Origin: Candidatus Dojkabacteria bacterium
GTDB taxonomy: Bacteria; Patescibacteriota; Dojkabacteria; J137
Direction: 5' to 3'
Length of the DNA stretch: 64,000 nucleotides
Assembly: GCA_030950485.1 (NCBI GenBank)
Contig: JAUZRK010000001.1
Coordinates: forward strand, 103,998 to 167,997
Below are positions 2,549-63,137 of the stretch, piece after piece. The position numbers and the translations under genes are program-made. Each line of letters opens with the position of its first letter. Position 1 is the first letter of the stretch. The notes below the pieces were generated by a model. That model worked only from the letters and a program-made list of their open reading frames with translations. It did no database searches and was not told where the DNA came from.

Positions 2549-2921
2549 AGTTCATTCTAATGCTTAATGATTCATTTTTCTACAAATTTCTTATCACGTG
2601 AAATATTCTCGAAAGAATTCCTTGAAAACTTTAGCTTGTTTAGGATATAATCAACTAACGCTTTGAAGGAGAATACGTCGCTCCGGAGCACCAGAAAGAA
2701 AAGAGATAAGCAATAAGATAAAAGATTTAAGACAAAAATGTTCTTACTTCTTAGTTCTTATACCTTATTTCTTATTAGAAATTGGCGGGTAAGCCCGAGA
2801 AAGCTGTAATTAAGTGCCCATCTAAACAAAGTTTAGGTTGGGAAAAGGGGTGGTAACACCGTGACTTCATAGGTCCCCTAAAAGTTGAATTAAGATTTAA
2901 GTAATAAGATCTAAGACTTTT

Positions 2922-3284
2922 ATGGTGGACTTTACAAAACTAAACATCTGGATTCGTGCTAAGAATTTATCCGTTGAGATATATAGACTTACAGATGATT
3001 ATCCTAAAATAGAACAATTTGGCATCTCAAATCAAATGAGGCGAGCAGCGACTTCAGTTCCAGCAAATATATCTGAAGGGTGTAGCCGGGATTCTAAAAA
3101 AGATTTTTCTTATTTTTTAAGCATAAGCATTGGTTCACTAAATGAGATCTATACTTTTCTAGAAATCTTCTCAGATCTGAAATATCTACAATTAAGCAAG
3201 AAGAATACACTTATTAAAGAAATTAATGAACTTAAAAGCATGATCTATTCTTATAAAAAAAAACTTAAGACTAAGGAGTCTTAG
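2922..3284 (+). CDS. four-helix-bundle protein (23S rRNA intervening-sequence protein family)
   Basis: 120 aa, residues typical of TIGR02436-like proteins (..GSLNEIYTFLEI..); paralog at 43322-43687. Confidence 0.6.
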   Translation: MVDFTKLNIWIRAKNLSVEIYRLTDDYPKIEQFGISNQMRRAATSVPANISEGCSRDSKKDFSYFLSISIGSLNEIYTFLEIFSDLKYLQLSKKNTLIKEINELKSMIYSYKKKLKTKES

Positions 3285-3324: not shown

Positions 3325-6189
3325 ATGGCATTACCAAAAGGAGCTTACAATCCAAAAGAAAATGAACAAACTATACTTGATAGGTGGTTAGAAGCTTGTG
3401 CTTACAAACCCGAATATGATCCAAAGGAGAGCAGAGTAGTTAGTTTTGAGGAAATGAAAAATGATTCAAGAGAGGCGTGGAGTTTAATCTGTCCACCTCC
3501 AAATGCTTACGGAAGACCTCATATTGGAAATATTTCTGGATATGCATATATGGACGTAATGGCGAGATTTCAGAGAATGAATGGGAAAAAAGTTTTAGTT
3601 TTGCCAGGTAAAGACCATGCTGGTCTCGAAGGAGAGGGAGTATTCGTTAGAGAAGTACTTGAAAAGCAAAAAAGAGACAAATTCGACATGAAAAGAGAAG
3701 AGTTCTATTCAGAAATGATGGATTTCTTTGAAAACAATATGGATATTGCTATGAAAGATGAGAAAGAAATTGGACTTTCTGCAGATTTTGATAGAGATAC
3801 TTTTACACTTGACCCTGATATTGTAGAGACTGTTTTAGATACATTTGTTGAAATGTATAACGCAGGAATGATTTATAAGGGGGTTAGATTAATCAACTGG
3901 GATCCAAAGGCCAGAACTGCAGTTGCAGACAATCAAATACTTTATAAGGAATCAAAGACGCCTTTCTTTTATTTTAAGTATATTTATAAAACTGGAGACG
4001 AGAAAAGGGCCATTGAGCTGAAAAATGAATTTGAAGGAAAAGAGCTTGAATGGAACTATGAAAGAAATATGACAAAAGACGGGAAAGAGGATTTAACTTT
4101 TTCATATGGTCATTTGGATAATCTTGAGATTATGGGATATGGATACAGTAACGTCCAATCAGGAGACAAAATCAGGGGTAGAGTAGTGGGCATACAAATG
4201 AGGTTGGATAGTAAATACCGATTAGTGGTTATCCATCCTGACTATTCAGGAGACATCAAAAATGATATTGCTCAAACATTTTTATTCGAAGCAAAGTACT
4301 ACGCTGGAGCACACATTCTTTTATTCGAAGAGAATTCAAATGATTCAGATTATACAAATGGATTTGTAATTGGAACAGTACGACCTGAAACTGTATTTTC
4401 AGACACGGCAATAGCTTGTGATCCAAAAGATGAAAGATACAAAGAATTTGTTGGAAAAGAGGTTGAAGTAGAGTTCTTAGGAGAGAAGAAAAAATTAAAC
4501 TTCATTGCAGATTTTGCAGTTGATAAAGATTTTGGAACAGGTTTACTTAAGGTAACTCCAGCCCATGCAAAAGAAGACTGGGAGATTGCAAGCAGACATC
4601 CTGAAGAATGTTTACCTGCTATTCAGTGTATTAATTATGATTTAACAATGAATCATATATCTGGAGAGAAATATTCTGGTAAAAAGGCAAAACTTGTTAG
4701 AACTGAAATGAGAGAGGATATGTTAAAGAAGGGAAATCTTGTTTACGTTAATGATGAATACGAGAATAAAATACAGGTTGCAGAAAGAACTGAAGCCCCA
4801 ATCGAGCCTTTATTGTCTTCTCAGTGGTATTTAAGATACGACGGTATAAAGGAAGCTACAATTTTAATGGCGTTTAATGAGCATAATGATGATACAAATT
4901 TGGAACAGAGCAGAGAAGAACTGGAAGAGATATTGGAGAAATTCAATTCCGTAGGGGCAAATAATTATTTGCCCCTACGGAACGATTTACCCTTACAGAA
5001 GAGTTTACCTGAACAGAATGAAGATATTGAAACGAGAACAGATTCAAAGGCAACGAACCCGCAACCAGAGACCCATAACTCAGTTCACATACACCCCGAA
5101 ACAATGGTTCCAAAGTTTAATCATTGGATGAATAATTTAAGGGATTGGGCAATTTCAAGAAGTTTATGGTGGGGGTATAGATTGCCGGTTTGGTATTCAG
5201 GAGAGGTTAAGGAGGTTATTGATGAGAATGGACAGGTAAAGGAGTTGATTATGCAAAATGGTACATTTGTTGAATTAGAATATGCTAATCCAGAGCATAT
5301 TAAAGTACAGAAAGAATCACCTGGAGAAAGCTGGATCCAAGACGAAAACGTACTCGACACTTGGTTTAGTTCTGGGCAATGGGTTTATGCGACATTAAGA
5401 AAACATAATTTAATGGATGAATTTTTCCCATCAGACGTTATGGTTTCAGGTTTTGACATAATGGAGAATTGGATTAGTAGGATGATGATGTTTACTTATT
5501 TTAAAGAGAAGTCTATTCCGTTTAAGGATGTATATCTAACAGGATTGGTAAAAGGTACAGATGGACAGAAAATGAGTAAGTCAAAAGGTAACTTAATAAA
5601 CATTGACGAGGTTAGAGAAAAATACGGAACTGACGCGGTTAGAATGGTTTATTATTACCAAAATACTGCTGGTGCTGATTATGCAATGACTTATGAGAAG
5701 CTTGATACATTTAAGAAGTTTGTAAATAAGATTTGGAATGCGAGTAAATTCGTAGAGATGAATGTTGATGGCTCCGAAGGCGTAGGGACAAATAATAATT
5801 TGTCCTTACAAGATTTTCAATTGCCAGAGACAAAAGCCTTATTTAATCACATTCAAGAAATTAAAGAACAGATTACAAAGAATATTGAATCATTCGAGTT
5901 AGGTCATGCAACCTACAACCTTTATCATGGGTTCTGGCATGAATTTGCAGATGTCCATATTGAGGCTGTAAAGAAATATACTTATACTCAAAGAGATAAA
6001 GAAACAGGAGAGATAATTAGTGAGCCAAAGGCTGAAGAAAAAATTGAGGTGGGTAGAGTGTTGCTGTATGCTTTAAAGAATTACCTAAAAATGCTACATC
6101 CATTTATGCCATTTGTAACTCAAAGAATTTGGGATGAGTTAGAAAAGGAAGAGGGGGAGCATGAGTTTTTGATGTATTGCAAGTGGTAA
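3325..6189 (+). CDS. valS: valyl-tRNA synthetase (class I aaRS)
   Basis: 954 aa; HIGN-type motif PHIGNISGYAYMD, KMSKS motif GQKMSKSKGN, editing-domain-sized insert; carries an in-frame palindromic insertion at 4947-4983. Confidence 0.8.
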   Translation: MALPKGAYNPKENEQTILDRWLEACAYKPEYDPKESRVVSFEEMKNDSREAWSLICPPPNAYGRPHIGNISGYAYMDVMARFQRMNGKKVLVLPGKDHAGLEGEGVFVREVLEKQKRDKFDMKREEFYSEMMDFFENNMDIAMKDEKEIGLSADFDRDTFTLDPDIVETVLDTFVEMYNAGMIYKGVRLINWDPKARTAVADNQILYKESKTPFFYFKYIYKTGDEKRAIELKNEFEGKELEWNYERNMTKDGKEDLTFSYGHLDNLEIMGYGYSNVQSGDKIRGRVVGIQMRLDSKYRLVVIHPDYSGDIKNDIAQTFLFEAKYYAGAHILLFEENSNDSDYTNGFVIGTVRPETVFSDTAIACDPKDERYKEFVGKEVEVEFLGEKKKLNFIADFAVDKDFGTGLLKVTPAHAKEDWEIASRHPEECLPAIQCINYDLTMNHISGEKYSGKKAKLVRTEMREDMLKKGNLVYVNDEYENKIQVAERTEAPIEPLLSSQWYLRYDGIKEATILMAFNEHNDDTNLEQSREELEEILEKFNSVGANNYLPLRNDLPLQKSLPEQNEDIETRTDSKATNPQPETHNSVHIHPETMVPKFNHWMNNLRDWAISRSLWWGYRLPVWYSGEVKEVIDENGQVKELIMQNGTFVELEYANPEHIKVQKESPGESWIQDENVLDTWFSSGQWVYATLRKHNLMDEFFPSDVMVSGFDIMENWISRMMMFTYFKEKSIPFKDVYLTGLVKGTDGQKMSKSKGNLINIDEVREKYGTDAVRMVYYYQNTAGADYAMTYEKLDTFKKFVNKIWNASKFVEMNVDGSEGVGTNNNLSLQDFQLPETKALFNHIQEIKEQITKNIESFELGHATYNLYHGFWHEFADVHIEAVKKYTYTQRDKETGEIISEPKAEEKIEVGRVLLYALKNYLKMLHPFMPFVTQRIWDELEKEEGEHEFLMYCKW
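4947..4983. repeat. GC-rich perfect palindrome ttccgtaggggcaaataattatttgcccctacggaa embedded in-frame in valS (encodes SVGANNYLPLRN)
   Basis: perfect inverted repeat; same element recurs in two other genes. Confidence 0.8.
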
Positions 6190-26326: not shown

Positions 26327-27520
26327 TTATTTTTTATAGATTTTAATTGCCCCCTTTAAGCCCTCTATAAGCTTAGCAATGTCTTCCTCGTTATTATAAA
26401 CACTAATACTAGCTCTTAAACTTGCAGGAACATTTAGCACGTCTCTATGCAGGATCTGGGTACAGTGATGTCCTGCTCTTACACAAATGTTTTTCTCTCC
26501 TAAGTAAGCAGATATATCATGTGAATGAATTCCTTCAATATTAAAACTAACTACAGCTAGAGCCTCTTTACCTGTAACATTTTTAGGATGATATATTTCT
26601 ATATTCTCAATTTCATCTAATCTTTCTAGTAAATAAAGTCTAAGCCTTTCTTCACTTAGCTTTATTTCTTCAAAACCAATACTGTCAATAAATCTTACAG
26701 CTTCTGCAAGTGCTATCGCTGCTGCTATATTAGGTGTACCAGCTTCAAATTTTGTTGGACCGCTTGCGTAGGTAGAACCGTTCCGTGTTACTTCATCTAT
26801 CATTCCTCCACCTAGCTTAAATGGATTTAGTTCTTTCATAATCTCTTCTTTTATATATAGAACACCTATTCCCGTTGGGGCAAACAGTTTATGTCCCGAG
26901 AAAGTTAAGAAATCTACATCTAAATCTTTGACGTCTATTTTCATATGCGCTATTGATTGAGTCGCATCTATAATTGAGTAGGCATTTTCATTAGAAGTTA
27001 TTATCTCTTTTATCGGTATTATTGTTCCAGTAACGTTACTGGCATGAATACTTGCAAAAATGTCAGAATCTTTGAATATCTTTGTATCATTTATTAAGTA
27101 ATTATCATCTAATCCTAAATATTGAATCATTTCTGGCTGTAAGTCCTGCCATGGTAGGACGTTAGAGTGATGTTCAAGATCTGTTAATGTGATTTTTGGA
27201 GGAACATTGATAAAACCACTTGAATAAAGTGATCTAGAAACTCCGTTAATTGCCTCTGTTGCGCCAGATGTAAAGATTATTTCATTAGGTTCCGCATTTA
27301 TAAATTTAGCAATTGTCTCTCTTACTTTTTCATATTCATCTGTGGCTTTTTCAGAAAGAGGGTAGAGTCCCCTATGAACATTCGAATTATATTCCGTATA
27401 AAATTCTACTAATTTATCAATTACTACTTTTGGTTTTTGAGAAGTAGATGCACTGTCTAGATAGACAAGTCCTTTATTTTTAGAAAAAATTGGGAATTGA
27501 TTTTTTATATTATTATTCAT
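26327..27520 (-). CDS. sufS: cysteine desulfurase SufS/CsdA-type (class V aminotransferase)
   Basis: PLP-lysine motif TFSGHKLFAPTGIGVLYI; C-terminal active-site Cys region HHCTQ. Confidence 0.75.
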   Translation of the reverse strand: MNNNIKNQFPIFSKNKGLVYLDSASTSQKPKVVIDKLVEFYTEYNSNVHRGLYPLSEKATDEYEKVRETIAKFINAEPNEIIFTSGATEAINGVSRSLYSSGFINVPPKITLTDLEHHSNVLPWQDLQPEMIQYLGLDDNYLINDTKIFKDSDIFASIHASNVTGTIIPIKEIITSNENAYSIIDATQSIAHMKIDVKDLDVDFLTFSGHKLFAPTGIGVLYIKEEIMKELNPFKLGGGMIDEVTRNGSTYASGPTKFEAGTPNIAAAIALAEAVRFIDSIGFEEIKLSEERLRLYLLERLDEIENIEIYHPKNVTGKEALAVVSFNIEGIHSHDISAYLGEKNICVRAGHHCTQILHRDVLNVPASLRASISVYNNEEDIAKLIEGLKGAIKIYKK

Positions 27521-40647: not shown

Positions 40648-41004
40648 ATGAGTGATCAATATGAAGATACACAGATAATACCTCATTTAGAAGAAATTGC
40701 AGAGGCAGATCCTGAGTTAGGACTAATACTTAATGAGTTAGATGGAAAAGAGGCTAGTACTGAAGAGCGTAAAAATCTTAGTGGTATTAATACTGAGGCA
40801 AAAGTAAATCTTGCTCAATTAAGGCCAGCGAAAAGAACACGACTAGCATTAGATACAATAGATTTATTACAAACTACGGAGACTGTTTCTGGAGCTATAA
40901 AATATGTTTCCACAACACCTTATGGGGAAGTAAGCACTCCAATGAAATTAATTCAGGGTTTGAATCAGGTAAGTGGCTTACCAAGACATGATGATGAGTC
41001 ATAG
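40648..41004 (+). CDS. hypothetical acidic protein
   Basis: ORF followed by a strong terminator. Confidence 0.4.
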   Translation: MSDQYEDTQIIPHLEEIAEADPELGLILNELDGKEASTEERKNLSGINTEAKVNLAQLRPAKRTRLALDTIDLLQTTETVSGAIKYVSTTPYGEVSTPMKLIQGLNQVSGLPRHDDES

Positions 41005-41024
41005 TATAGAAAAAGAAAGCTAAT

Positions 41025-41053
41025 AAAAAAAAGCCCCTTCGGGGGCTTTTTTT
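41025..41053. terminator. bidirectional rho-independent terminator
   Basis: aaaaaaaagcccc-ttcg-ggggcttttttt between convergent genes. Confidence 0.85.
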
Positions 41054-41058
41054 ATTCA

Positions 41059-41619
41059 TTAGAATTTTAATCTCTTGGTCTTCTCTAAAGCCTCTTCAAA
41101 AGAAAGATTCAACTTATTCGCATAATAATCAGTAACTGAATGATAAACTTTATCATCCCAGTTAAAACCTAATTTTTCTGCAACAGGCTTAATACTTTCT
41201 ACACTTTCGCCTTCAATTTCAACTAAAGGCTCAACTATTGGATAAGTATCAATAACTATCTCACACCCGTCTAACTCCCAGATCTCTCTATATTTTTCTT
41301 GGACATAATCATACTTTAACCCCGCTAATTCTAAAATCTTTACTGCATCTTCAAAATTTGAAACATTAATTTCTGTTTCTTTTTGATCAGAGATTTCATC
41401 ACCTTTTCTAGCGTGAATTTTTGCAGTCATTGTAATCTTATCCCCCTCGTCTCTAACTCTAACGTAATGTACCTTCATTTCTTTATTCTCGGTATTCCCA
41501 AACATAATTATCCTCATTAATGTTTCCGCCTGAATAAGTTCAGCGTTTGACTCTTTTAATGATTTTCTAACATTATCTTTATTTATATCTAAAAATTTTA
41601 CTTCTAATTCTGTATTCAT
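41059..41619 (-). CDS. CYTH-domain protein (second copy)
   Basis: N-terminal ExExK, TELEVKF. Confidence 0.55.
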   Translation of the reverse strand: MNTELEVKFLDINKDNVRKSLKESNAELIQAETLMRIIMFGNTENKEMKVHYVRVRDEGDKITMTAKIHARKGDEISDQKETEINVSNFEDAVKILELAGLKYDYVQEKYREIWELDGCEIVIDTYPIVEPLVEIEGESVESIKPVAEKLGFNWDDKVYHSVTDYYANKLNLSFEEALEKTKRLKF

Positions 41620-48849: not shown

Positions 48850-48905
48850 GCGACGATGAAGGCGACAATCATGATTGTCGCCTTCGGATAATTGCCGCCT
48901 TCATT
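48850..48905. promoter_or_regulatory. perfect 28-bp palindrome gaaggcgacaatcatgattgtcgccttc plus two extra half-sites (ggcgacgat, aattgccgccttc) in the folA / kinase divergent region
   Basis: GC-rich dyad symmetry in an AT-rich spacer; operator-like or hairpin. Confidence 0.45.
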
Positions 48906-48930: not shown

Positions 48931-49962
48931 TTGAAAATGACTGAAAAATTAATAAAAAAAATATTAAAAAAATATGGATATGATGTTGTAAAAATATATC
49001 CAGAGCAATCAGGGTATCGTAATAAATCTTATGCGGTTGATGTGATGCATTTGTATGATTCTGTAAGGGCAAAAAATATTTTGCCCCTACAGAGAAAACG
49101 AAATTTGATCCTTTATAAAAATGAGCAAGGAATTATTAAAAAAATACAAAACGCAAACGCAGTTTCAAATTTCCTCGCAGAACAAGGCATTCCATCAAGA
49201 AAATCTCTTGGGAAAATAATTAGGTTGCATGATGAGAAAATAGAAAGATTCGCATGTTTGTACAACTATCTTCCAGGAGAAACCATTTCATGGGAAGCTT
49301 ACAATAAAGAACATATTAAACTATTAGGGAAGGCAATGAGCGATATGCATTTTTATTTAAAGGATTATTCTAAAAAGGATAAGTTGGAAAGTATTGATGA
49401 AATCATTAAAAACCAGGCGAATAAAATGATTCAATATTTTAAAAAAGAGGGTGTTAGAAATGCGATGGTTAGGAAATTGGGATTGATATGTAATATAAAT
49501 TTTATAAACAAATTCGTAGGGGCCGAAAATCTTCGGCCCCTACAAAACATATATTCAGATCAATCTATTCCCCTCCACATGGACCTCGTCCGTAGCAACG
49601 TTCTATTTGATTTAGATAAAAATAAAGACATATTTATTTCAGGAATCATAGATTTCGAAAAAGTAGCAAAGGGAAATCGAATATTTGATATCGCGAGAAC
49701 CTTGGCGTTTCTTCTTGTAGATTGTAAATATAAAGATCCAGTTAAAATTAGGAAATACTTTTTAATAAGTGGATATAAAAAAAGAGAGCTAGAAGATTTA
49801 CCAGATTTAACTCATTTAAACTATTTAATTTACTATTTTTTAACATACGATTTTTATAAATTCTTAAGACATAATCCTTATGAATCATTAAACTCGAATG
49901 AGCATTTTATTCGTACGAAAAACTTTTTACTAAGTAAAAAAATCCTGATAAGCTGTAGTTAA
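48931..49962 (+). CDS. APH/choline-kinase-like phosphotransferase
   Basis: Brenner motif HMDLVRSNVLFD and IIDFEK; carries two in-frame palindromic insertions. Confidence 0.6.
   Translation: MKMTEKLIKKILKKYGYDVVKIYPEQSGYRNKSYAVDVMHLYDSVRAKNILPLQRKRNLILYKNEQGIIKKIQNANAVSNFLAEQGIPSRKSLGKIIRLHDEKIERFACLYNYLPGETISWEAYNKEHIKLLGKAMSDMHFYLKDYSKKDKLESIDEIIKNQANKMIQYFKKEGVRNAMVRKLGLICNINFINKFVGAENLRPLQNIYSDQSIPLHMDLVRSNVLFDLDKNKDIFISGIIDFEKVAKGNRIFDIARTLAFLLVDCKYKDPVKIRKYFLISGYKKRELEDLPDLTHLNYLIYYFLTYDFYKFLRHNPYESLNSNEHFIRTKNFLLSKKILISCS
49061..49092. repeat. palindrome gtaagggcaaaaaatattttgcccctac embedded in-frame in the kinase gene (SVRAKNILPLQR)
   Basis: family A element, one arm mismatch. Confidence 0.7.
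49515..49546. repeat. palindrome gtaggggccgaaaatcttcggcccctac embedded in-frame in the kinase gene (VGAENLRPLQN)
   Basis: family A variant, perfect 12-bp arms. Confidence 0.7.
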
Positions 49963-55175: not shown

Positions 55176-56615
55176 CTACACTTTTATAATAAGCTTATTA
55201 TAAATATCAATATGCCCCTGGAGCATTTTTCTTAGAGTAAATTTATTCTCAAAGCTATCTCTACAAACGCTCCTATCAACTTGATTAATTTTCTCCATCA
55301 CTTCAACTAACTCATCGACAACCCTAGACTCACCATAATAGAAATCTCTCACCTTCTTCATCTTACTCTCATAATAACTCTTTCTCTTTTCCCGGTCAGA
55401 ATCATTAATAACAAAACCATTTTTCCCATTTTCTATCAGCTCTTTTGTAGCCCCATTATCTAAACCTATAACCGGAGTCCCACATGATAAGGCCTCTATA
55501 GTAACCATTCCAAACGGCTCCTTAAATATAGAAGGTACTAACAACGCCTTAGCATTCCCTAAAAATTTCTGCTTAGCTTTGTCGCCTGAAACGTATCCAA
55601 CGTATTCAACTGTATCATTTAGTTCAGGCGCAATTACAGAATTCCAATATGAATCATTCGACTCATCTGAATAATGCTTTCCTGCAATCTTTAGAGTTAC
55701 GGGTTTCGAGTTTCGGGTTGCGAGTTCCTCATTATATTTTTTTACTGCAGCTATTGCGTAGTGGACCCCTTTTGGTTCAATTATTCTCCCGAGATAAGCA
55801 AAATATTCTGTATCATTTTGGCCAGCAGGAGCAGGACTTGGCTCACCAGCTGGAGATGGGTTGTACCCTGGTCCTAAATATTTTGGCTTAAACCTTTTTT
55901 CATCAATTCCATGATAAACATTCCCAACCCAATTCGTATCATCCGGCATATCTTCTCTTTGAGATAGAGACATTGAGATAAAATTTCTATCTTTATATTT
56001 CGGTAAAATAGTTCGATATTTCGTTAGAAAAGAGTAGGGATCATGATGCGTAAATACAACTGGCTTATTACAAAGCCCGCTCATCTCAAGTGCGATCTGT
56101 TCTTCCAACATGTAAACATGAACAATATCAAACATATCATCATTAGCCATTTCGTAGGCTTTGGCTATTATTTCAGATTGAAAATGTCTAGAGAGAGTAG
56201 TGAACAGTAAGGGATGTTTTTTAAGGAGTTCTTTTAGACCGTAACCCCTAGTTTCCAGTTCTTCTTTCAGTAGGGTTTGGTCTGCGGTGATGTTTTTTAC
56301 GGTAGGGGCAAAATATCTTTTACCTTTACTCTTTTTTGTTGGATCAAAAAATCTTTTGCCCTTACTGTTATCTCGACCAACAACCCCAGGCGAAAACAAC
56401 GTAACCTCAGCTCCTGCCTCGGCAAGACCATTTGCAAGATCAATAGCAAGATCTCCCGGAGAAAATATATTATCAGACATCAATTCATCCGACATAAAAA
56501 TATGCGGACAAACGAATGCAATTCGTATTGGAAAATTAGGGGCTGTCATCTGCTCTCGTAGGGGCAAAATATTTTTTGCCCCTACGGATTCGATTACATT
56601 ATTTTTCTTCCTCAT
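55176..56615 (-). CDS. GT4-family glycosyltransferase with several in-frame repeat insertions
   Basis: EPFGMVTIEALSCGTPVIGLDNG near the C-terminus; family A palindromes at 56293-56368 and 56557-56586; family C repeat at 55694-55726. Confidence 0.6.
   Translation of the reverse strand: MRKKNNVIESVGAKNILPLREQMTAPNFPIRIAFVCPHIFMSDELMSDNIFSPGDLAIDLANGLAEAGAEVTLFSPGVVGRDNSKGKRFFDPTKKSKGKRYFAPTVKNITADQTLLKEELETRGYGLKELLKKHPLLFTTLSRHFQSEIIAKAYEMANDDMFDIVHVYMLEEQIALEMSGLCNKPVVFTHHDPYSFLTKYRTILPKYKDRNFISMSLSQREDMPDDTNWVGNVYHGIDEKRFKPKYLGPGYNPSPAGEPSPAPAGQNDTEYFAYLGRIIEPKGVHYAIAAVKKYNEELATRNSKPVTLKIAGKHYSDESNDSYWNSVIAPELNDTVEYVGYVSGDKAKQKFLGNAKALLVPSIFKEPFGMVTIEALSCGTPVIGLDNGATKELIENGKNGFVINDSDREKRKSYYESKMKKVRDFYYGESRVVDELVEVMEKINQVDRSVCRDSFENKFTLRKMLQGHIDIYNKLIIKV
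56557..56586. repeat. palindrome cgtaggggcaaaatattttttgcccctacgg in-frame in the GT4 gene (ESVGAKNILPLRE)
   Basis: family A element; degenerate copies at 56293-56330 and 56343-56368. Confidence 0.75.
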
Positions 56616-62684: not shown

Positions 62685-63137
62685 ATGAACATTTTTCTAG
62701 AATATATAAAACAAAATAATATTAAATTAGAAATTCAAACATTTACTGAAACTACACATACAGCTGAAGAAGCTGCAGCTAGATTAGGTATTGAAGTAGG
62801 GCAAATTGTTAAATCCCTCTTGTTTAAAACTAATGAAACTAACACTCCAATAATGATTCTAACCTCAGGAAAAAACAGAGCAAATTTAGAGGTAATTGAG
62901 AATTTATTAAATGAAAAATTAGATAAGCCCGATGCAGATTACGTTAAAGAAGTAACTGGTTTCTCAATAGGAGCAGTAACTCCTTTCGGACATAAAACAG
63001 AATTAAAGACATTTATAGATTCAGATCTACTTACGTACGATGAAGTTTCCGCTGCAGCAGGCGATAGGTTCTCTGTGTTTATGATAGAACCTGATATACT
63101 AACAGAAATTATAAATGGTGAAGTTGTTAAATTTTAA
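62685..63137 (+). CDS. YbaK/ProX-type aminoacyl-tRNA deacylase (editing domain) protein
   Basis: SIGAVTPFG motif. Confidence 0.6.
   Translation: MNIFLEYIKQNNIKLEIQTFTETTHTAEEAAARLGIEVGQIVKSLLFKTNETNTPIMILTSGKNRANLEVIENLLNEKLDKPDADYVKEVTGFSIGAVTPFGHKTELKTFIDSDLLTYDEVSAAAGDRFSVFMIEPDILTEIINGEVVKF

Follow-up and report, generated by a model that had tools for sequence, protein, structure and literature searches.

Palindromes in three genes of a Dojkabacteria genome are probably copies of a GTAG-tagged REP present in many phyla

Repetitive extragenic palindromes (REPs) are commonly regarded as features of proteobacterial genomes that lie outside genes and are mostly inherited vertically, and REPINs, doublets of two inverted REPs across a short spacer, are largely extragenic and lineage-specific. 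The enzymes associated with them, the REP-associated tyrosine transposase family (RayT or RAYT; HUH/Y1 type), are believed to act on single-stranded DNA by cutting such hairpins and rejoining them. Here we analysed seven copies of a 28-bp palindrome lying within three genes of a Candidatus Dojkabacteria bacterium, all in a 64,000-nucleotide stretch of contig JAUZRK010000001.1 (GCA_030950485.1) that we call the window. RAYT groups extend over 17-21 bacterial classes (Bertels et al., PMC5581495), and a GTAG REP superfamily of 24 families has been described from more than 80 species in eight phyla (Di Nocera, De Gregorio & Rocco 2013, PMC3733652). The 2013 survey also documented a minority of intragenic copies in Opitutus terrae, Pseudomonas and Xanthomonas: GTAG REPs inside open reading frames (ORFs) encode peptides of the form VGA..., in several cases within genes for tRNA synthetases and DNA repair, and copies at N termini are often really extragenic. 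The window palindromes are most probably GTAG-tagged REP copies, a miniature non-autonomous element of 28 bp that spread locally into three genes of this Dojkabacteria lineage. This assignment follows from their tag, their stem-loop and the linkage of the same 28-mer to RayT genes in other phyla.

The seven copies share the consensus GTAGGGGCAAAA-N4-TTTTGCCCCTAC (Table 1). In valS, which encodes valyl-tRNA synthetase (ValRS), the palindrome consists of TTCCGTAGGGGCAAATAA joined to TTATTTGCCCCTACGGAA and encodes SVGANNYLPLRN. An initial annotation of the window had described it as a perfect GC-rich palindrome of 37 bp. It is indeed perfect, over 36 bp with base 4983 unpaired, and richer in G+C than the window (30-37%), at about 44% rather than the claimed 50% or so. 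Its placement in frame was confirmed: it lies in frame 0 of an ORF whose ValRS motifs are intact. Similar palindromes had been reported from an APH-like kinase and a GT4 glycosyltransferase, and both the palindromes and the two family assignments proved correct. The pattern GTAGGGGC-N(4-30)-GCCCCTAC had three matches in the window and none in 100 shuffles. Using a mismatch-tolerant scan with two 11-nt arms, we recovered seven copies with at most four mismatches, each with its arms 6 nt apart, against none in 30 simulated sequences. Two corrections to the earlier copy list follow: a degenerate second copy in valS had been missed, and what had been read as one palindrome at 56293-56368 is a tandem pair of degenerate copies whose outer arms are intact and whose inner arms have decayed. 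At the stringency that admits a marginal eighth candidate, the null expectation is 0.07 matches per window.

Table 1. Host genes and palindromic copies in the window (coordinates count from its first base).
Feature	Position (strand)	Sequence	Frame, product or peptide	Remarks
valS, valyl-tRNA synthetase	3325-6189 (+)		954 aa, intact	Pfam tRNA-synt_1, Anticodon_1; HIGH (PHIGN) and KMSKS
APH-family kinase-like protein	48931-49962 (+)		343 aa	PF01636 APH
GT4 glycosyltransferase	55176-56615 (-)		ORF 479 aa	PF00534; likely true start Met23
REP copy 1, valS	4947-4982, core 4951-4978	GTAGGGGCAAATAATTATTTGCCCCTAC (core)	frame 0, (S)VGANNYLPL(R)	36-bp perfect palindrome
REP copy 2, valS	5782-5809	GTAGGGACAAATAATAATTTGTCCTTAC	frame 0, VGTNNNLSLQ	degenerate; 3 arm mismatches
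REP copy 3, APH-like kinase	49060-49093, core 49063-49090	GTAAGGGCAAAAAATATTTTGCCCCTAC	frame 0, VRAKNILPLQ	
REP copy 4, APH-like kinase	49513-49546, core 49516-49543	GTAGGGGCCGAAAATCTTCGGCCCCTAC	frame 0, VGAENLRPLQ	
REP copies 5 and 6, GT4	56299-56368 (56302-56329, 56338-56365)	SKGKRFFDPTKKSKGKRYFAPT	minus strand, frame +1; SKGKRYFAPT / SKGKRFFDPT	degenerate tandem
REP copy 7, GT4 ORF	56557-56586, core 56558-56585	GTAGGGGCAAAATATTTTTTGCCCCTAC	frame 0, in frame with the annotated GT4 start; VGAKNILPLR, residues 11-20	30-bp perfect palindrome
Probable in-frame tandem duplicate of copy 1 right arm	4984-5001 (+)	GATTTACCCTTACAGAAG vs TATTTGCCCCTACGGAAC	LPLRND / LPLQKS	18 bp; 13/18 identical
Marginal, possibly decayed copy	26874-26900	GTTGGGGCAAACAGTTTATGTCCCGAG		5 mismatches, spacing 5 not 6; outside the seven

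GTAG stands exactly at the start of four of the seven copies, with GTAA in one and GTTG in another, and on the opposite strand two copies carry GTAA in place of the expected GTAG. In every intact copy the tag is mirrored by CTAC at the far end, which makes the unit symmetric. The copies form three clusters, one per gene (clustering P about 7e-4), and the host genes lie 44 kb and 6 kb apart.

To our search of one genome per species, the exact pattern GTAGGGGCAAA-N6-TTTGCCCCTAC returned at least 119 loci, with 131 copies among the matches listed. These came from cyanobacteria, Bacteroidota, Fibrobacteria, Chloroflexi, Desulfobacterota, Beta- and Gammaproteobacteria, Chlorobium, Margulisbacteria and others, and included Geobacter, Nitrosomonas, Nitrotoga and Moraxellaceae. 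The 28-mer found in valS is the commonest variant among them (26 of 131 listed copies). The presence of GTAG in all 131 follows from the search pattern itself; the six central bases are self-complementary in 75 of 130 listed copies, where about two would be expected by chance. Most listed copies (88 of 131) lie outside ORFs of 100 or more amino acids. No direct duplication stands in the flanks, unlike the target-site duplication expected of a miniature inverted-repeat transposable element, whose terminal inverted repeats derive from an insertion sequence, and palindromy extends into the flanks at chance level in 121 of 130 external copies (nine extend by at least 3 bp, against about two expected). 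Carriage by phage found no support, with the exact pattern on only five viral contigs.

The 28-mer is linked to RayT genes in these other phyla. Clustering of the ORFs neighbouring the listed loci produced one dominant recurring family, RayT-like and present in nine loci, and in 9-10 of the at least 119 loci a tyrosine transposase gene of the RayT family stands 1.5 kb or less from the 28-mer. These neighbours share the motifs MPNH[IV]HG...WQRNYYEHIIRN...EYIxxNP, match the NCBIfam model NF047646 ('REP-associated tyrosine transposase') at E values of 1e-15 to 1e-19, align to an E. coli RayT sequence and show weak similarity to TnpA-REP in PDB 4ER8 (E = 0.08). A profile of six of them matched at least 8000 proteins in a set of 5.8 billion, with UniRef/JGI names such as 'REP element-mobilizing transposase RayT'; the best 120 of these matches come from Proteobacteria, Bacteroidota and similar groups. 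At two loci the 28-mer brackets the gene, with copies at 2182 and 2787 around a RayT ORF at 2237-2761 in Nitrotoga (L042) and at 3918 and 4599 around a RayT ORF at 3985-4530 in Geobacter (L031). Judged from sequence, both are the classical REP-RayT-REP arrangement.

The transposase genes themselves also carry the element. In 42 of the best 120 RayT homologues, a REP-encoded peptide (for example HVHGIITVGANNVGANDYLPLP) directly follows the HUH motif, often as partial tandem repeats, so that, judged by sequence, one fixed hot spot within the RayT gene holds the cognate REP in frame. This position hints at self-targeting or autoregulation, of which we found no mention in the REP/RAYT literature consulted.

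A restriction-modification context recurs near some external copies. In the Geobacter metagenome-assembled genome (L031:655-5804), a type I restriction-modification hsdR ORF of 1100 amino acids contains three in-frame REP copies (VGAKNLLPLQ), and the RayT gene lies between hsdR and hsdS. HsdS-like and Fic/RhuM-like ORFs stand beside the REP again in Nitrosomonas loci L078 and L086.

Among described systems, the GTAG REPs are the closest: like the window unit, they have a GTAG terminus, a stem-loop of 20-40 bp, compensated stem variants, dimers or clusters and an association with RAYTs (PMC3733652). The window unit differs in being fully palindromic, in having all of its copies within genes and in its host, a member of the candidate phyla radiation (CPR/Patescibacteria), which lies outside the survey's eight phyla; the survey predates most CPR genomes. 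The REPs and bacterial interspersed mosaic elements of E. coli with TnpA-REP, and the REPIN-RAYT systems of Pseudomonas, likewise combine a short GTAG-headed hairpin repeated in the genome with a single-copy HUH/Y1 gene bracketed by repeats, as in the Nitrotoga and Geobacter loci. In contrast to these, the 28-mer is almost invariant across many phyla, and its RayT clade is divergent, scores below curated cut-offs and has a hypervariable REP-derived insert after the HUH motif. We also compared, by description, the small dispersed repeats of Nostoc and Anabaena, which Elhai and colleagues are said to have reported in 2008: these are reportedly mobile-looking hairpin repeats of 21-27 nt that are not linked to a RayT gene. 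They too are short hairpin repeats, in cyanobacteria, a group that is also rich in the 28-mer.

We then considered where the copies sit in their host proteins, whose best homologues are from Candidatus Dojkabacteria. In an alignment of 24 ValRS sequences, the segment encoded by copy 1, SVGANNYLPLRNDLPLQKSLPEQNEDIETRTDSKATNPQPE, occurs only in the window protein; the nearest relatives (60-65% identical) have in common with it part of a larger expansion of the loop at this site, and most Dojkabacteria ValRS proteins have no expansion there. An AlphaFold2 model of the protein (mean pLDDT 78.8) places the copy 1 peptide in a low-confidence coil that is predicted to be a disordered loop: the stretch from residue 545 to 584 has pLDDT values under 50, lacks secondary structure and follows immediately on a helix at 530-542. 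Copy 2 falls in a variable inter-helix loop, with no net gain in length over homologues. The tandem pair in the GT4 protein is a 23-residue insertion (RDNSKGKRFFDPTKKSKGKRYFAPT) missing from 14 aligned homologues, and the first kinase copy is a 13-residue insertion missing from 15; the second kinase copy is in a loop of variable length. The net gains seen are thus 13 and 23 residues (39 and 69 bp). The remaining GT4 copy is upstream of the conserved N terminus (Met23, MTAPNFPIRIAFV), where most homologues start with M..(R/K)(V/I)ALVVPHIF, and may belong to the 5' untranslated region rather than to the coding sequence. Neither a VGA...PL nor a GK...APT motif was present in any of 120 ValRS, 120 GT4 or 150 APH homologues, and no copy turned up, even at five mismatches, in the 57 kb covered by the valS loci of four sister Dojkabacteria. 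The alignments of all three families place the peptides in this lineage alone and in variable loops. None of the 390 homologues carried the peptide, so that the refuting check proposed with the initial annotation, for orthologues with the peptide but no palindrome, came out negative, in favour of its general idea.

Dojkabacteria ValRS proteins range from 756 to 1477 amino acids, and in many of them extra domains are fused or inserted, including acetyltransferase (PF13673/PF00583), His_Phos_1 (PF00300), Ser_hydrolase (PF06821) and DUF559 (PF04480) domains, which marks the gene, as far as its sequences tell, as an unusual insertion hot spot. Upstream, a T-box leader at 2654-2881 (+) scores 40.7 bits with an E value of 1.8e-7; inserted stretches keep it under Rfam's gathering score of 93. 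Between this leader and the valS start at 3325 lies a PF05635 gene (120 aa, 2922-3284; 23S rRNA intervening-sequence/Avd-like four-helix bundle) bracketed by TAAGA-rich inverted repeats (AAGATCTAAGAC ... GTCTTAGATCTT), an arrangement suggestive of a small cassette having inserted into the valS leader. The idea that the palindromes are solo ends of this cassette was rejected, as a tblastn search with the PF05635 protein against the 119 palindrome loci found nothing.

These observations suggest how a REP could have come to occupy three genes. The element would have entered the Dojkabacteria lineage horizontally, since the sister loci have no copies and one window copy matches the pan-phylum consensus exactly although its host has 31% G+C. 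A RayT-type HUH/Y1 enzyme would have moved it by way of single-stranded hairpins, and local duplication would have added further copies, as the tandem GT4 pair and the probable 18-bp duplicate beside copy 1 support. Selection would then have removed insertions that break a reading frame or a protein fold, leaving copies in surface or variable loops, or upstream of a real start codon, in a stop-free frame. We infer that the copies reached their positions in this genome by RayT-type transposition, and not just by local duplication or recombination, and that the peptides they encode are neutral passengers.

Several points weigh against this account. REPs are by definition mostly extragenic, and all seven window copies are intragenic, in ORFs of at least 100 aa; at a coding density of 86% this is statistically not unusual (ORFs cover 85.6% of the window, P = 0.34). 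Canonical REPs have an unpaired GTAG tag at one end only, whereas the window unit, with its mirrored GTAG...CTAC, has no orientation. The matches of the RayT-like neighbours to NF047646 are below its curated 80-bit equivalog cut-off, and their matches to Pfam Y1_Tnp are sub-threshold. No RayT gene was found in 70.8 kb of the Dojkabacteria genome, where tblastn searches with six RayT-like proteins hit only the REP-encoded decapeptides. Moreover, 28 bp is not a multiple of three, so that a copy stays in frame only with additional bases or compensating indels, and the second copies in valS and in the kinase gene have no clear net insertion and so do not demonstrate simple insertion.

The absence of a RayT gene from those 70.8 kb also suits a more passive history, in which a REP entered once, its RayT has since been lost or resided on a phage or plasmid, and the copies arose by local duplication, slippage and recombination. 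The tight clustering into three genes, the tandem pair with decayed inner arms, the probable duplication of an 18-bp arm beside copy 1 and the degeneracy of four of the seven copies all fit such a relic. We nevertheless consider it rather unlikely. Three copies remain perfect or one mismatch away from it in a 31% G+C genome, and one is the commonest variant in other phyla, which argues for recent arrival or active maintenance. The distances between the host genes, furthermore, require at least two longer-range moves.

We also asked how well the palindromes fold. As single-stranded DNA, each copy forms a 12-bp stem with a 4-nt loop, with free energies of -8.5 to -18.8 kcal/mol and z scores of -5.4 to -8.5, and no shuffle folds equally well; copy 1 in valS is the strongest (-18.8 kcal/mol, z -8.5). 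In the GT4 tandem pair, the outer arms pair with each other (-11.6 kcal/mol), and the other five copies are singletons. Pairing holds at 94% of stem positions across the set of seven, and at four of the 12 stem pairs both arms have changed (GGGGC/GCCCC to GGGAC/GTCC is one example): one G-C pair has become A-T in valS copy 2, and two stem pairs are altered in the second kinase copy (AA/TT to CG/CG). The covariation score and the percentage of paired positions exceed those of all or nearly all of 500 shuffles and of all slid registers. Scanning the window against Rfam gave no match at gathering thresholds, and a tRNA scan was likewise negative; the palindromes belong to no known RNA family.

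Strong hairpins with compensated changes in a third of their stem pairs could be read as functional DNA or mRNA structures whose palindromy the host selects, for translational pausing, mRNA stability or protein binding, and the GT4 copy just upstream of the probable start could affect translation as an mRNA hairpin. We regard this as improbable. At these sites the element is absent from sister lineages and from all 390 homologues, its three hosts are functionally unrelated genes, and G-T pairs are not placed consistently on the sense strand. Compensated changes, for their part, would arise just as well among REP subfamilies or through palindrome-templated repair.

The initial annotation had instead seen in the palindromes the signature of Rickettsia palindromic elements (RPEs) in shortened form. 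The resemblance is genuine as far as it goes: RPEs too are palindromic repeats that colonise unrelated ORFs in frame in a reduced genome, leaving them unbroken and adding peptide segments where these are tolerated. Units of the long, RPE-1 type run to about 100-150 bp, and to our knowledge RPEs (RPE-1 to RPE-8) are restricted to Rickettsia and have no dedicated transposase. The window element is set apart by its host, which belongs to Dojkabacteria and not to Rickettsiales, by its unit of 28 bp, or 36 bp at most, by the GTAG tag and RayT linkage elsewhere that place it with the GTAG REP superfamily, and by the occurrence of the identical 28-mer across many non-rickettsial phyla. In addition, the short rickettsial RPE-4 and RPE-6 are themselves REPs of another superfamily, tagged with CGTC (PMC3733652). 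Membership of the RPE family is accordingly very improbable.

Reading frames account for the peptides that these palindromes encode. The 43 external copies inside ORFs use frame 0 (27 copies) or frame 1 (16) and never frame 2, which contains TAG; frame 1 of the AAATAATTATTT variant contains TAA. Frame 0 yields VGA...LPL, and frame 1, open for some loop variants only, yields (R/K)GK...APT. A palindrome opens the same frames on both strands, so genes on either strand come to carry the same peptide, as the initial annotation had correctly reasoned, and stop-free frames explain a recurring peptide without selection on the peptide. Its statement that every copy encodes the same peptide holds for five of the seven, which give similar sequences; the other two, both in the GT4 gene and in frame +1, give SKGKR[FY]F[DA]PT. 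Its broader view, that the palindrome is selfish at the nucleotide level and tolerated within ORFs, is borne out by the copies elsewhere in intergenic DNA and in unrelated genes of many phyla, the use of two frames and both strands, the absence from homologues and the placement in variable or disordered loops.

Independent gain by three proteins of a selected VGAxNxLPL motif, as the similar decapeptide from five of seven copies might suggest, is hardly credible given the unrelated peptide from the other two copies, the mostly intergenic position of the same DNA in other phyla, a nucleotide identity above what peptide constraint needs and the predicted disorder of the ValRS loop. An assembly or binning artefact, through chimeric reads or a REP-rich contaminant, might account for an element of about 44% G+C in a 31% G+C genome that is identical to copies in unrelated phyla, but it has next to no likelihood: each copy is in frame in a native Dojkabacteria gene with continuous flanks, and all seven are identical, in the same genes, in the public contig JAUZSD010000008.1 (GCA_030949735.1), an assembly whose scattered single-base indels relative to the window mark it as independent.

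One patch of the window differs between the two assemblies in another way. At 62998-63090, within a tRNA_edit/YbaK-like ORF (62685-63137), about 95 bp contain 11 substitutions from A in the window to G in the public contig, together with small indels; outside this patch the assemblies differ by isolated 1-bp indels only. Candidate explanations are strain variation, misassembly and adenine-directed mutagenesis. The patch prompted the idea of a diversity-generating retroelement; no template copy was present in 70 kb.

Two further inverted repeats lie between genes. Upstream of the APH-like gene is a perfect 28-bp palindrome at 48858-48885 (GAAGGCGACAATCA joined to TGATTGTCGCCTTC), with a related half-site at 48888-48904; it has no GTAG tag, belongs by its sequence to a different family and is possibly an operator. 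At 41022-41056, in the gap between the convergent ORFs 40648-41004 (+) and 41059-41619 (-), the sequence AATAAAAAAAAGCCCC-GAA-GGGGGCTTTTTTTATT looks like a bidirectional intrinsic terminator.

The type of element described here is already known, as intragenic GTAG REPs were reported in 2013, and no new kind of element is revealed; what is new, according to our literature searches, is the host phylum. These searches found no report of REPs or RAYTs in Patescibacteria/CPR among the best-ranked results, and a search for the exact arm sequences returned only unrelated primers. Returning to the GTAG REP assignment, we tentatively raise a more specific possibility, which we hold to be less likely than its opposite: that the 28-mer is a distinct, fully symmetric ('double-tagged') REP type, served by one divergent RayT clade and moving between phyla, including ultra-small CPR genomes, where it would settle in coding loops for want of intergenic space and so add to lineage-specific insertions in CPR proteins.

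The picture of REPs is widened by an almost invariant member that is present in many phyla and extends to a CPR genome of roughly a megabase, where every copy in the window adds codons to a gene, including one for an essential aminoacyl-tRNA synthetase. For annotation, VGAxxxLPL and GKRxFAPT can serve as flags, being signatures of translated repeats. The 28-mer and the RayT-like genes beside it offer a compact 28-nt substrate and a candidate enzyme clade for work on RayT specificity. For the CPR, they point to a concrete origin, at the nucleotide level, for some of the so far unexplained insertions of peptides into the proteins of these bacteria.

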